In this document: positions 23,487 to 51,892 of the stretch, piece after piece
How the letters are laid out: each line of letters begins with the position of its first letter
How positions within the stretch are numbered: the first letter of the stretch is position 1
Source: an uncultured Pelagibacteraceae bacterium
GTDB taxonomy: Bacteria; Pseudomonadota; Alphaproteobacteria; Pelagibacterales; Pelagibacteraceae
NCBI GenBank assembly: GCA_902588975.1
Contig: CACIRJ010000001.1
Coordinates: 85,594 to 149,593, forward strand
Length of the DNA stretch: 64,000 nt
Direction of reading: 5' to 3'
Notes under the pieces: generated by a model
Told to the model about the DNA's origin: nothing
The model's database searches: none
What the model saw: the letters and a program-made list of their open reading frames with translations, nothing else
Made by a program: the position numbers and the translations under genes

Positions 23487-24149
23487 ATGAAGTTAAACAA
23501 ACTACAAAAGAAAATAGGTATTAGCTTTAAAGATGATAAACTATTGATACAAGCCTTAACTCACAAAAGTTTTGATACAAAAAATAATTATGAAAAACTA
23601 GAATTTTTAGGTGATAGAGTTTTAGGGTTTGTTATATCAAAGAAACTTTTAGAGTTATATCCAAATGAAAAAGTAGGTATGATTGACAAAAAACTTGCAA
23701 ATTTAGTTAATAAAAATAAGTGTTTTGAAATTGGTAAAGAATTAGAATTGGATAATTATATTTTAACAGGAAACACAGAAAAGAAAAAAAAAGTCAATAT
23801 TGAAAAAAAAATTATATCTGATTGTTGTGAGTCTTTGATTGGAGCAATTTATATAGATAAAGGTTTTGAGGTTTCGTCAAAATTTATATTAAATTATTGG
23901 AAAAATTATTTAAATTTATCAGATATTACTGTAATCGACTCCAAAACAAGATTACAAGAATATTCATTAAAGAAATTTAAAGCATTGCCAATATATAAAC
24001 TTATATCTAATACAGGACCAAGACATAAACCAAATTTTAAAATTAGTGTAAAAATTAAGGATAGCAAAACAGTTATCGCTGATGGTAGTTCAAAAAAAAA
24101 TGCAGAACAAGCCGCAGCTATGAAACTTCTAGAAACTATTAAAATATAA
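23487..24149 (+). CDS. rnc: Ribonuclease III
   Basis: NYEKLEFLGDRVL, ESLIGAIY, C-terminal dsRBD. Confidence 0.96.
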   Translation: MKLNKLQKKIGISFKDDKLLIQALTHKSFDTKNNYEKLEFLGDRVLGFVISKKLLELYPNEKVGMIDKKLANLVNKNKCFEIGKELELDNYILTGNTEKKKKVNIEKKIISDCCESLIGAIYIDKGFEVSSKFILNYWKNYLNLSDITVIDSKTRLQEYSLKKFKALPIYKLISNTGPRHKPNFKISVKIKDSKTVIADGSSKKNAEQAAAMKLLETIKI

Positions 24150-24829
24150 TGAATTGGCAAGATAAAGGTTACTTACTTTCAAAAAATAAATATAATGAAA
24201 ATTCTGTAATATCTGAATTTTATACTGAAAATCACGGAAAAATTTCAGGAATTATTTTTGGAGCAACTTCAAAAAAAATAAAAAACTACCTATTTGAGGG
24301 TAATAAATTGCATATAAATTATAATTCAAAATCTCAATCAAAAATTGGTTCTTTAAAAGTTGAAATTGATGAATTTAAAACTCCTTACTTTTTAGAAGAT
24401 AAGCAAAAACTCCTTTGTATAATTTATACAATGAATTTGATTAAAATTTTAACAGTAGAGAACGAAAAAAATAGAGAGATTTATTACTTAATTGATAATT
24501 ATTTTGATATATTAAAAGATGAAGAGTGGCTTTCAAAGTTTGTAAATTGGGAGTTAAACTTTTATAAATTAATTGGATATGACATAGACTTTAATGATTA
24601 TGTAGAAAAAGTTTCTGAAGGTAATAAAATTAATTATAAATTAAAAAATTCTGACAAAATCATTCCAAATTTTTTAGTAAATAAAGATGAAGAAGATATA
24701 AGCTTTGAAGATACTTTTGATGCTTTAAAAATTGTAGGAGACTTTTTAGATAAAACAATAGTTAAACCGAATAATCTTAATTTTCCCAAAACAAGATTTA
24801 ATTTTCAAAATTCTTTAAAATTAATCTAG
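24149..24829 (+). CDS. recO: DNA repair protein RecO
   Basis: MNWQDKGYLL..KYNENS..FYTENHGK N-terminus; position after rnc. Confidence 0.85.
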   Translation: MNWQDKGYLLSKNKYNENSVISEFYTENHGKISGIIFGATSKKIKNYLFEGNKLHINYNSKSQSKIGSLKVEIDEFKTPYFLEDKQKLLCIIYTMNLIKILTVENEKNREIYYLIDNYFDILKDEEWLSKFVNWELNFYKLIGYDIDFNDYVEKVSEGNKINYKLKNSDKIIPNFLVNKDEEDISFEDTFDALKIVGDFLDKTIVKPNNLNFPKTRFNFQNSLKLI

Positions 24830-48283: not shown

Positions 48284-48820
48284 GTAATATTCTATGTACT
48301 ATATATTGATATAATACTTTAATAATTCTATATAAACTATTGTATTTATTACATTTTATTTGATACATCAACTATAATATTATTTATATATATATACAGG
48401 AAAATGGAAAAAAAATTATTAAATTTTCAATTAAATAAACGCTAGTAATTAAAAATAATCAATAAACATTGGATTTTTGAATTATAAAAATAAACAATAA
48501 AAATTGTTTATGAAATAGGGGACAATAATTCAGTTAAATCAACGGTTATAAAGAAATACTAGAAGAAATCTATTGATTTGGAAAATTTAGTTTTGTTTTT
48601 GATTTGGAAATTTCTCAATATTGATTGATATAAGTATGCTAAAAAATGTTAAATTTCTTAATAAATATTGAAGTAATGCAATTTAAGAATATAGTGTTTA
48701 ATGCCCCATATATAGGGCTAATTTAGAGATTTAAATTTATAAGCTGCAACCAATAGGAGAATTTAAAATTGTAATACTAAATGTTGTTAAATTTAAAAAA
48801 AACATTGGTATTACTAGCTT

Positions 48821-49096
48821 TTAGAGCAAAATTCCCTCAGATTTTAGTAGTTTTTTCTTTGTTTTTATACCACCTTTGCCTGAATATCCACCAAGAGAAC
48901 CATCAGACCTGATTACTCTATGGCAAGGTATTTTAGGAGCATATGGATTCTTTCCTATAGCATTAGCTACAGCTCTTACAGCTTTAGGTTTATTTATACC
49001 TTTTGCTACGTCAGAATAAGTTAGAACACTACCTTTTTTTATGGTTTTTAAGAATTTCCAAACTTTAATTTGAAATTTTGTTCCTTTAAGGATCAT
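48821..49096 (-). CDS. ogt: Methylated-DNA--protein-cysteine methyltransferase (C-terminal domain only, 91 aa)
   Basis: TYSDVA, RAVANA, IPCHRV active site, GGY, LLKSEG; ATG at 49096. Confidence 0.9.
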   Translation of the reverse strand: MILKGTKFQIKVWKFLKTIKKGSVLTYSDVAKGINKPKAVRAVANAIGKNPYAPKIPCHRVIRSDGSLGGYSGKGGIKTKKKLLKSEGILL

Positions 49097-49100
49097 ATAC

Positions 49101-49146
49101 AAGAAAAAACCCTGTATCTCTGCACCTTTTCAGGTACAAAGATCAG
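49101..49146 (-). terminator. Intrinsic terminator closing the structured RNA
   Basis: CTGATCTTTGTACCT-GAAA-AGGTGCAGAGATACAG followed by GGTTTTTTCTT. Confidence 0.65.
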
Positions 49147-49381: not shown

Positions 49382-49588
49382 CTATCTAGGTCCAATGAAA
49401 ATTAGAATAAAATAAGATAAATAGAAAATTATTGTTAAAACAGATAAGAAATACACTTCTAATGATTTTCCATTTTTTTTGTAAACCAAATAACTCAGTA
49501 TAGTTAAACCTAAAGATATAATTAAAAAATAGCTTGAAGGAATTTCACCATCTATATTCATGAATTCTTCGTTTAATTCATTTGACAT
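49382..49588 (-). CDS. Small hypothetical membrane protein (2 TM)
   Basis: 68-aa ORF with two hydrophobic helices, divergent from the recombinase. Confidence 0.55.
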   Translation of the reverse strand: MSNELNEEFMNIDGEIPSSYFLIISLGLTILSYLVYKKNGKSLEVYFLSVLTIIFYLSYFILIFIGPR

Positions 49589-49605
49589 TTAAAATCACTT
49601 AATAT

Positions 49606-49640
49606 ATTACTAATGATAATTAATTGTTATCAATAGTAAT
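49606..49640. repeat. loxP-like inverted repeat, candidate recombination site
   Basis: ATTACTAATGATAA-TTAATTG-TTATCAATAGTAAT: 14-bp arms (13/14 match) around a 7-bp asymmetric spacer, 3 nt before the recombinase ATG. Confidence 0.65.
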
Positions 49641-49643
49641 TAT

Positions 49644-50597
49644 ATGAATGAACTGACAACAGACCTAAAATCGCTTCATCAGGCAACTTTAAATAACCTT
49701 AAAAGCTCAAAGGCAAATAATACAATAAGAGCTTATAAATCTGACTTTAAAGATTTCGGAGCTTTTTGCGCTAAGCATGGTTTAGATTCATTACCAACAG
49801 AGCCAAAAATAGTTTCCCTGTATCTAACCCATCTCTCTAAAAACTCAAAAATTAGCACTTTAAGAAGAAGATTAGTATCAATAAGTATGGTTCATAAGCT
49901 TAAAGGGCATTATCTAGACACAAAACATCCAATCATCGTTGAAAATTTAATGGGAATAAGAAGGGTCAAAGGAAGTATTCAGAAAGGAAAAAAACCTTTA
50001 TTAATCAATCATTTAAAATCAATTATTAATGTAATAAATGAACAAAAACATGAGGAAATAAAAAAACTTAGAGATAAATCAATAATTTTAATTGGCTTTG
50101 GAGGAGGCTTTAGAAGAACTGAGCTCATTTCAATTGATCATGAGGATTTAGAATTTGTTCCTGAGGGCCTAAAAATCACTATTAAAAGATCAAAAACTGA
50201 TCAATTCGGCGAAGGAATGACTAAAGGACTACCCTACTTCGATAATGAAATTTATTGCCCTGTTACAAATCTAAAAAAATGGTTAGAAATTTCTAAAATT
50301 AATTCTGGACCTATTTTTAGAAGATTTTCTAAAGGTTTATCATTAACAGATAAAAGATTAACTGACCAATCTGTAGTTTTATTAATGAAAGAGTATTTAA
50401 AGTTAGCAGGTATCGAAAACAAAAATTTTGCAGGACATAGTTTAAGGTCAGGTTTTGCAACAGTAGCTGCTGATTCAGGCGCTGATGAGAGAAGCATAAT
50501 GGCTATGACAGGTCATAAAACAACTCAAATGGTTAGAAGATATATTAGAGAGGCAAATATATTTAAAAATAATGCATTAAATAAAATTAAAATATAA
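49644..50597 (+). CDS. Cre-like tyrosine site-specific recombinase
   Basis: NTIRAYKSD N-domain; GFRRTE (R), SKTDQ (K), GHSLRSG (HxxR), TGH, RRY (Y): complete catalytic set. Confidence 0.9.
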   Translation: MNELTTDLKSLHQATLNNLKSSKANNTIRAYKSDFKDFGAFCAKHGLDSLPTEPKIVSLYLTHLSKNSKISTLRRRLVSISMVHKLKGHYLDTKHPIIVENLMGIRRVKGSIQKGKKPLLINHLKSIINVINEQKHEEIKKLRDKSIILIGFGGGFRRTELISIDHEDLEFVPEGLKITIKRSKTDQFGEGMTKGLPYFDNEIYCPVTNLKKWLEISKINSGPIFRRFSKGLSLTDKRLTDQSVVLLMKEYLKLAGIENKNFAGHSLRSGFATVAADSGADERSIMAMTGHKTTQMVRRYIREANIFKNNALNKIKI

Positions 50598-50602
50598 TAA
50601 AC

Positions 50603-51640
50603 TTAAATTAGCTTATTTCTGTATCTATCAATTTTTTTTGAAATATATTCATTCGTTAAGTAAAAATGTTTATAAATCTTTTTTTGTAATGATTTCTTTA
50701 AAGATTCATTTTTAATAAGTTTTTCAATTGAATTTTCAATATTTTTAACTGTTAAAGACTTTATTTTCATAGCTTTTGGAGATGCCTCGCTTAACCCACC
50801 TTTATCTGCGATAATTACAGCACATCCTGCACTTGAAGCTTCTAAGGCAGTTCTACCGAAGGGTTCGTTCCATCGAGAGCAAACAACTGAAATATCTGAT
50901 TTTATAAACCATTTTGTAACAATATTATATTTTTGAAAACCTAAAATTTTCAAATTTTTGTGTTCAAAAATATGGTTTTCTCTAGGTTCATCACCAATAA
51001 CAACTGCTTTCCAATAAGGATTATTATTTAATATACTTATAATAGCCTTTCCAAATAAATCATAACCTTTAGAAGCATTTAATCTACCAACAAACAAAAT
51101 TATTTTTTTTTTATTTTTAAAATTAATTATTTTTTTACTTGTTGATTGATTAATAACTTCGAGTTTATCTGTATTGTATTTTTTATTTAAACCTTTCATA
51201 AATTTATTTAGAGTCCAATTACTATTAAATATTATTTTTTTTGTTTTGTTAAATATATCTATTCTTTCCTTTACCGTTTTCGATGATTTCATTTCAAGTG
51301 GATTATTATGAAAATATAGAATAATATTATTATTTATCTCATAAATAGAATTTATATAATCTGGTCTATTATGTATTTCTATTAAATTTGATTTTTTTAT
51401 TTTTTCAATATCCAGAAATTTTTTTACATATACTTTACTACTGCTTCTGAAGAATATTTTCGAAAAATTTAAATTAGTATAATTAGGCAATAATTTTTTT
51501 TTAAAAGAGGTATTTCCATATACCTGAATATTTTTTTTGTATTTACTTAGTTTGATTGTGTCATTTAAAAAAAGGGAAACTGCACCTGCATAATTTGGGG
51601 TAAAATTTTCTTTGTAAGGAAGTAGAATTGAGATTTTCAT
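50603..51640 (-). CDS. Glycosyltransferase family 4
   Basis: LFVGRL...KG, EPFGRTALEA (EX7E), GGLSE. Confidence 0.9.
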   Translation of the reverse strand: MKISILLPYKENFTPNYAGAVSLFLNDTIKLSKYKKNIQVYGNTSFKKKLLPNYTNLNFSKIFFRSSSKVYVKKFLDIEKIKKSNLIEIHNRPDYINSIYEINNNIILYFHNNPLEMKSSKTVKERIDIFNKTKKIIFNSNWTLNKFMKGLNKKYNTDKLEVINQSTSKKIINFKNKKKIILFVGRLNASKGYDLFGKAIISILNNNPYWKAVVIGDEPRENHIFEHKNLKILGFQKYNIVTKWFIKSDISVVCSRWNEPFGRTALEASSAGCAVIIADKGGLSEASPKAMKIKSLTVKNIENSIEKLIKNESLKKSLQKKIYKHFYLTNEYISKKIDRYRNKLI

Positions 51641-51892
51641 TTATAAATAATTAGATTTTATTTTGTTTCTAAGTTTATAGTTTTTTTTAAGTTTGTATTC
51701 CTCACTCATGGCCCTAGATTTTGAATCATAACTCATACTATAAGCCAATATCCATTTTCTACCTCTAGTAAATTTTGCTCCTTTCGAAGCATTATGTTTT
51801 GCCAATCTTTTCTTTAAATTGTTAGTATAGCCAACGTAGCTAAGATATTTCTGTTTATTTTTAGATATGATTAAATAAACAAAGTATTTCAT
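51641..51892 (-). CDS. GIY-YIG nuclease family protein (UPF0213-like)
   Basis: FVY...YVGYT..LKKRL..HN..KGAKFTRG, A..EE..LK. Confidence 0.88.
   Translation of the reverse strand: MKYFVYLIISKNKQKYLSYVGYTNNLKKRLAKHNASKGAKFTRGRKWILAYSMSYDSKSRAMSEEYKLKKNYKLRNKIKSNYL

Follow-up and report, generated by a model that had tools for sequence, protein, structure and literature searches.

The window, that is, the whole stretch of 64,000 nucleotides analysed here, carries at 49644-50597 (plus strand) the gene of a 317-residue tyrosine recombinase with a Cre-like predicted fold, the sole PF00589 gene found in its source genome (G000, 77% complete). Immediately upstream, on the same strand, lies a predicted recombination site, hereafter of type A, whose left arm ATTACTAATGATAA (49606-49619) and right arm TTATCAATAGTAAT (49627-49640) pair in a 14-7-14 arrangement with one mismatch; the 7-bp spacer between them, TTAATTG (49620-49626), is asymmetric and is likely the strand-exchange region that gives the site its direction, and the three nucleotides TAT separate the right arm from the ATG at 49644. 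This palindrome at 49606-49640, three nucleotides ahead of the start codon, had been described in a first-pass annotation made from the sequence, and its coordinates are borne out here. A putative promoter of the sigma-70 type precedes the gene on the plus strand, with a predicted -35 element that matches TTGACA perfectly (49582-49587) and, at a spacing of 17 nt, a predicted -10 element TATTAC (49605-49610) that overlaps the left arm; the latter lacks the final T, which a consensus promoter scan demands, and was therefore missed by it. On its other side the recombinase gene faces a convergent glycosyltransferase gene (50603-51640, minus strand), its usual downstream neighbour, which we regard as context outside the mechanism proposed below.

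When the 370-nt intergenic region was resampled 3000 times by dinucleotides, an inverted repeat of this kind turned up in 12 of the resamples, but G000 carries 19 such inverted-repeat windows at 12 places; the palindrome taken by itself is therefore modest evidence, and conservation is what counts. The surroundings agree with the earlier reading of the sequence: gene blocks converge at the recombinase gene, the coding bases being 24,306 plus versus 4,986 minus at 17.5-48.3 kb and 2,199 plus versus 10,563 minus at 50.6-64 kb; no phage, plasmid or transposase Pfam family appears among the matches listed for the 69 other ORFs of the window (three of them matchless), which are housekeeping by Pfam wherever matched; and the site is single-copy both in G000 and in the whole chromosome of G084, so that there is no att duplication. 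Some other features of the window merit mention in their own right. Between the EamA gene and ogt, a stretch of 540 nt (48284-48820) is very A+T-rich and without a long ORF, and contains a short direct repeat (48450 and 48485); in genus g1 the module is flanked by an ogt-like DNA-binding domain gene (48821-49102) and a small GIY-YIG nuclease gene (51641-51892); and recO directly follows rnc with no era between them (24149-24826), rnc-era-recO being the gene order in many proteobacteria.

Enzyme family and the distribution of XerC and XerD

The intact R-K-HxxR-H-Y set that had been ascribed to the recombinase consists of R157, K184, H265, R268, H291 and Y300, which align with R173, K201, H289, R292, W315 and Y324 of Cre and are invariant in 56 of 56 full-length orthologues, so that His291 rather than Trp occupies the position of Cre 315 throughout. 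The core-binding (PF02899) and catalytic (PF00589) domains both exceed their cut-offs in the 317-residue protein, whose predicted structure (pLDDT 80) finds its best fold match in Cre (TM 0.67-0.74, with 0.63 for XerH and 0.41 for XerD); among the Foldseek matches listed, all through rank 31 are Cre or Tre. The label of a Cre-type enzyme thus stands as far as the fold is concerned, whereas in sequence the protein is nearer to plasmid integrases (38-45% identity in this comparison), to a TnpS-like integrase of pWW0 (29% over 311 aa) and to IntA (28% over 250 aa) than to Cre (23%). Its nearest named sequence relatives are plasmid integrases at 35-45% identity, and a GATAA-N6-8-TTATC palindrome lies upstream of the gene in all four that were checked; a search of representative homologues yielded further relatives at about 36-46% identity, and the core palindrome is present at 8 of 13 loci of alphaproteobacterial relatives. 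A quick tree, which took in three of six Xer sequences from the sister family and has long branches, unites the SAR11 genes in one clade (98) and groups them with Cre, IntA and the plasmid integrases (support 100), apart from XerC/XerD. On this evidence the module appears not to be an Xer system, though it would work like those of XerS, XerH and XerL.

The search of SAR11 genomes for xerC and xerD, which the first-pass annotation had proposed, returned none over the cut-off: across 41 family genomes the best match to the XerD model reached 82 bits (0/41 over the curated cut-off of 329.6), and the top match was usually the recombinase described here. In the sister family of the same order, the same model matches two genes at 244-322 bits in five of five genomes, values that fall just short of that cut-off, and we accordingly call these genes XerC/XerD-like; the window recombinase finds there only matches of 24-30% identity (38 of 45 genomes) and no orthologue, and elsewhere in the class relatives at 27-44% identity occur in 17 of 298 genomes. 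The distributions of the recombinase and of XerC/XerD are complementary in the genomes searched. The recombinase itself stays below the XerC and XerD family cut-offs (73 versus 329.6 bits and 64 versus 335 bits), far under that of XerA, and scores 42 bits against 267 for the XerS model NF003462. Nor does the arrangement resemble XerC/XerD-dif, in which dif is a 28-bp site of two 11-bp half-sites around a 6-bp centre (as given in the accessible text of PMC5357621): no pair of paralogues over the cut-off was found in the 41 genomes, and the predicted site reads 14-7-14 or 9-7-9 and is near-symmetric across the 56 orthologues.

Conservation of the module and its place on the chromosome

Within a family sample of 150 genomes, 36 of them single-contig, the orthologue is present in 36 of 36 single-contig genomes, and an order-wide sample gave a match in 99 of 105 family genomes (the unpublished genomes G050 and G494 are counted in these family-sample and order-wide tallies only); the gene is thus core and neither patchy nor island-like in its occurrence. 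A script located the site, with the core GATAA-N7-TTATC, beside the gene in 58 of 59 loci (44/45 plus 14/14 further loci), and its sole miss among the 45, G049, is a split alignment in which the site is visible on inspection. Conservation of the palindrome, which the earlier reading had put forward as a check, is upheld by the aligned upstream regions, which keep it with compensatory changes; of the 56 orthologous sites, 33 have the spacer TTAATGG and 18 have TTAATTG. At every one of 44 loci TTGAC precedes the left arm by 17-19 nt, and this constant spacing places the predicted -10 element within the left arm. A second copy with the conserved spacer was not listed in any of 47 genomes under a looser pattern, one that misses three known arm-variant sites.

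The gene is missing from five near-complete genomes; in three of these a contig breaks off at or close to the usual downstream neighbour, and in one that neighbour is itself absent. In G005 (95% complete, 30 contigs) neither the recombinase nor an XerD match was found, and no contig end lies near the usual neighbour; this genus g6 genome has no tyrosine recombinase match and, around that neighbour (L399, G005:C8:40000-47990), no site, which may reflect a real loss or an assembly gap. The orthologues of G133 and G510 are frameshifted, possibly through assembly error, since G028 too has a split hemE. On the upstream side the neighbours change from genus to genus (short ogt, GNAT-like or other genes), whereas the module keeps its place where gene orientations converge. 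As an observation of its own, variable genes are inserted directly 3' of the recombinase in G084, G111, G131, G133 and others, so that the terminus amounts to a small variable island. Two studies have RNA contigs that cover the orthologue of G084, although such contigs cannot tell start, strand or level.

We used parB and hemE as origin markers, since dnaA was not found in the incomplete G000; parB serves as a proxy for oriC, and hemE is displaced in genus g9 and fails there as a marker. Measured from parB, the module lies at 0.45-0.55 of the chromosome length in 33 of the 35 single-contig genomes measured, the outliers being G033 (0.448) and G063 (0.898), and in the latter the local skew still flips at the module despite its distance of 0.90. 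On the chromosome of G063 (C1) the two arcs that separate parB from the site are very unequal and the skew blocks are mixed, possibly owing to misassembly or to a large asymmetric rearrangement. Along the whole chromosome of G084 the site, at 998,833, falls between the maxima of cumulative GC skew (995,998) and AT skew (1,002,174), and the gene-orientation maximum is at 997,065; contig C1 of G000 has just two KOPS, and its GC-skew maximum falls some 10 kb away from the site.

The KOPS motif GGGNAGGG points at the site in 14 of its 15 occurrences in G084, a polarity that ranks first among 2338 like-shaped motifs. Over 11 chromosomes 135 of 159 KOPS are directed toward the site, a share that rises to 40/43 at distances up to 150 kb and to 13/13 up to 20 kb, with a weak polarity in G027 (8/13). 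In 49 of 50 flanking regions all 28 KOPS point toward the site, against 7.4 expected at genome density, and when pooled they bracket the switch in polarity to -905/+604 nt of it; many of these are homologous among kin, so that the counts are not independent. While 23 of the 28 are sense to their gene, the remaining two antisense and three intergenic ones point to the site as well. Control motifs in the same flanks are skewed too (GGANAGGG 29:4, GGGNAGAG 27:4), and the strand signals, skew and KOPS alike, partly follow gene orientation and are not independent of it. The residual skews at fourfold sites in G084 peak at 862,592 and 1,089,096, off the site, and did not locate the terminus. What had been proposed about a location at the skew terminus therefore holds in its larger part, namely the position opposite parB, the skew maxima of G084 and the polarity of KOPS, but not for the fourfold-site skews or for G063. 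An FtsK with a gamma domain is encoded in five of five genomes; a model of the catalytic domain in complex with FtsK gamma scored 0.00 and is uninformative.

Two site types and their copies in phages

Cre reads the outer arm of its site through K244. The 56 full-length orthologues (G133, G510 and G049 were left out of this analysis) fall into two types, of which type A (38 enzymes) has a 12-residue hairpin, an invariant K230 aligned with Cre K244, and Q242 aligned with Cre R259, its arms pairing out to 14 bp save for two inner positions, whereas type B (18 enzymes) has K242 and no hairpin, with arms TTCCGATAA/TTATCGGAA that are paired over 9 bp only. R259 is a specificity residue of Cre, according to the accessible part of PMC7438526. 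The arm type co-varies with the residue equivalent to Cre R259 and with the hairpin, a co-variation that may reflect one or two evolutionary events rather than 56. In the quick tree the types are mixed across genera, which suggests that modules may have been exchanged between genera. In two genomes of genus g9 (G019:C1:124592 and G026, L029) the promoter spacer is g9-like while the type-A enzyme that follows it is g1-like (77-79% identity), and the switch from g9-like to g1-like falls at the site, as if the gene had been swapped there.

Copies of the site are also found in viral sequences. The raw count of the viral pattern, estimated at about 280, was near a rough chance estimate, for which reason we rely on arm-filtered matches only. 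Of 120 viral loci listed for the type-A pattern, 36 have at most three arm mismatches, compared with a null of 0.6%, and 10 of these 36 have a second core, mostly of type B, within 120 nt; the type-B pattern with a free spacer gave 52 viral stretches, 35 of which have the host-resembling spacer TTAA(A/T)(C/T)G. The fetched flanks of 42 well-matching viral loci contained no recombinase gene, and the sites lie outside ORFs in all 33 viral loci inspected. Among 18 chosen ORFs beside viral sites, 14 are terminase large subunits (one of them 85% identical to that of Pelagibacter phage HTVC106P), one is a small subunit, one a portal protein and two are matchless; the 14 large subunits also rule out, at the loci tested, that the 4-kb site-bearing viral contigs are microviruses. 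Six cultured pelagiphages were inspected. The copy in Greip is of type A and good, with a spacer of 6 nt; those in HTVC106P and HTVC024P are tandem and degenerate, and the one in Lederberg is weak. The whole genome of HTVC010P and 3.8 kb of HTVC204P showed no clear site, and neither did 4.9 kb of Venkman, a non-SAR11 phage that served as control. Type-A and type-B sites stand in tandem about 30 nt apart in the viral contigs L216, L237, L259, L262, L420 and L449 and in L469 (1414-1480), suggesting that such phages cover both host enzyme types. These patterns raise the prospect that SAR11 phages may exploit the host enzyme through the site copies that they carry.

Proposed function, alternatives and relation to known systems

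We propose, with a probability of about 0.85, that homotetrameric recombination between sister sites, guided by FtsK and KOPS, resolves chromosome dimers in SAR11 bacteria, and that occupancy of the site also represses the gene. Recombinase and site would thereby likely stand in for XerC/XerD-dif at the terminus, much as the first-pass annotation had suggested in speaking of a domesticated Cre/lox-like module, a suggestion that gains support from the conservation, core status and terminal position of the module and from the failure to find XerC/XerD in the family genomes searched; as in known single-recombinase systems, there is one conserved recombinase and one single-copy, non-coding palindrome at the terminus. 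By analogy with the biochemistry of Cre/loxP and Xer, one monomer would bind each arm; FtsK, translocating along KOPS, would bring the two sister sites of a dimer together at the division septum, and the homotetramer would swap strands across the asymmetric 7-bp spacer by way of a Holliday junction, leaving two monomers. The part of FtsK would probably be to make a simple synapse, as with engineered dif::loxP plus Cre in E. coli. With the predicted -10 element in the left arm and the right arm next to the start codon, enzyme occupying the site would act as a repressor of its own expression. The family ancestor likely acquired the module from a plasmid-type resolvase, which then displaced xerC/xerD.

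It is rather improbable, in our estimation, that the palindrome is mainly an autoregulatory operator while the recombinase does something else, such as island shuffling or a role in DNA damage, its terminal position being inherited synteny. The overlap of the predicted promoter with the left arm in 44 of 44 loci would suit an operator, as would the variable genes directly 3' of the recombinase and the rise, together with recA, of the 'xerD' of P. ubique, SAR11_1019, recorded in the accessible text of PMC5069961 and PMC3090418; SAR11_1019 would be the orthologue of the window recombinase. An operator, however, has no need of an asymmetric spacer that is conserved, the islands are not flanked by a second site, the module keeps to the convergence point while its upstream neighbours vary by genus, and in the genomes searched it and xerC/xerD are mutually exclusive. 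Separately, we observed that the region upstream of recA in G084 (C1, near 625,800) holds GAAC-N7-GTAC, which we take to be akin to the alphaproteobacterial LexA box; the recombinase promoter is without one, yet 'xerD' rises with recA.

Very little credence attaches to the view that the module has no housekeeping role and is what remains of a plasmid or an integrative element, or else a gateway for phage or island integration that the host has kept. A catalytic set intact in 56 of 56 orthologues, the single copy and the presence in 36 of 36 complete genomes of a streamlined family speak against it, as do the lack of mobility genes in the window and of an att duplication, even though plasmid integrases are its nearest relatives and have the same site ahead of the gene (4/4), phages carry the site, and modules appear exchanged between genera. 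The two frameshifted copies (G133, G510) and the absence from G005 would also fit a relic, but the locus coincides with a contig end or a missing region in four of the five near-complete genomes that have no copy of the gene. Highly unlikely, too, is binding of the site by a different protein (a transcription factor or a terminus organiser), with the recombinase acting at other places or at no fixed site: G000 does hold inverted repeats of this size at 12 places and the motif overlaps a predicted promoter, but there is one copy of the site per chromosome, the arms co-vary with the predicted DNA-reading residues of the recombinase, and the core accompanies distant homologues (4/4 plasmids and 8/13 alphaproteobacterial loci). 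Readings of the palindrome as a transcription-factor site only, or as an att site, are rejected on account of its single copy and of the co-variation.

Dimer resolution by this module, if true, would fill the dif/Xer gap for the most abundant marine bacteria, provide a precise terminus marker for SAR11 genomes, point to a host function that pelagiphages exploit and offer two natural specificity variants that can be tested in E. coli. Going further, we put forward tentatively a wider scenario, in which the family dropped xerC/xerD and domesticated a plasmid Cre-type resolvase as a self-repressing one-gene resolver, a counterpart in nature to the engineered dif::loxP strain, whose two specificities would move between genera, and in which gene-less tailed pelagiphages would bear sites of one type or of both next to their terminase genes so as to borrow the host enzyme (for resolving or circularising their genomes, or for integrating at the terminus), recombinase type perhaps being a hidden factor in phage-host matching.

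In the accessible text of PMC2731167, Carnoy and Roten place P. ubique among proteobacteria without dif/Xer and report no evidence of natural loxP/Cre-like substitutes in such organisms, and later SAR11 papers name the gene xerD or XerC/XerD (PMC3090418, PMC5069961, in the parts accessible), as does bioRxiv 10.64898/2026.10.07.757358, where XerC and XerD are named in Prokka-annotated genomes. In the open-access literature, from which subscription journals are largely missing, we found no paper that assigns dimer resolution to the module, the accessible portions of PMC8138268, PMC3025954 and PMC3861242 included. The claim of a new orthogonal recombinase/site pair was nevertheless overstated, given that the site type is already predicted in Supplementary Table S2 of PMC10250229, whose accessible part has the type-A site (reverse complement) in three untested rows, CP003809.1, CP020778.1 and CP020777.1; the pairing of enzyme and site is thus in print, without a biological role, and the type-A site is absent from the sheet of tested enzymes in that supplement as far as it is accessible. 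In the same source, Jelicic et al. (2023) describe an active Cre-type pair on a CCGATAA...TTATCGG site, and the tested lox9 and lox11 share the core. Relative to a 13-8-13 geometry, the SAR11 site adjoins its gene but reads 14-7-14, and 7-nt spacers occur in the accessible Table S2 as well (PMC10250229). Among relatives the core occurs in tested targets, namely attA of IntA and lox9/lox11. We presume the three accessions to be Pelagibacter genomes.

Type B resembles IntA/attA of Rhizobium etli p42a, where the tested attA is TCCGATAA-7 nt-TTATCGGA, with the geometry and arms of type B (accessible text of PMC4928290); the arm form TCCGATAA-N7-TTATCGGA recurs in the 18 type-B orthologues, and the type-A site of the window has just GATAA-N7-TTATC in common with it. 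The IntA system is bidirectional and, like the SAR11 module, has its site just upstream of the gene, but it differs by its 28% identity, its role in plasmid co-integration and its spacer. The TnpS/TnpT resolvase of Tn4651 is represented by the pWW0 integrase, nearer than Cre at 29% identity, which we take for TnpS from its divergent arrangement, the record not naming it. That system has a divergent helper gene, tnpT, with the rst site between the two (accessible text of PMC7157771), whereas the neighbour survey found no tnpT-like partner beside the SAR11 gene, and 3.5 kb around the pWW0 gene contain no GATAA-N6-8-TTAT core; the accessible text of PMC3082901 gave no SloxP sequence. Cre/loxP of phage P1 has in common with the SAR11 module the arm-spacer-arm site near the gene and the best fold match, but differs in sequence (23% identity), in W315 where SAR11 has His, and in an 8-bp spacer against 7 bp as drawn here; the SAR11 module, unlike Cre/loxP and engineered dif::loxP, is naturally chromosomal, core and linked to the terminus. 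In engineered E. coli, Cre/loxP can take over from XerCD/dif at ter, where KOPS-guided FtsK is needed for simple synapsis and not for activation (PMC2680272, in its accessible text).

XerS/difSL of streptococci and lactococci and XerH/difH of Helicobacter and Campylobacter likewise join one recombinase to a site adjoining its gene at the terminus (accessible text of PMC5357621 and PMC9765430), but difSL has 31 bp with an 11-bp centre, in contrast to 14-7-14 or 9-7-9, and XerH, which was compared by fold alone, matches the SAR11 enzyme less well than Cre does. The closest precedent is XerL/dif of the Legionellales, which also escaped Xer homology searches and has long inverted arms and a site-mimicking mobile element; from the description in the accessible text of PMC9765430, it is set apart by a xerL gene more than 400 kb from dif in L. 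pneumophila, as opposed to a gene adjoining its site in SAR11, and XerL has been tested genetically. Single-recombinase systems are therefore already known, and what appears to be new is the dimer-resolution role proposed for the SAR11 module, which would amount to a further independent solution of this kind, drawn from the plasmid Cre/IntA branch and not from Xer.
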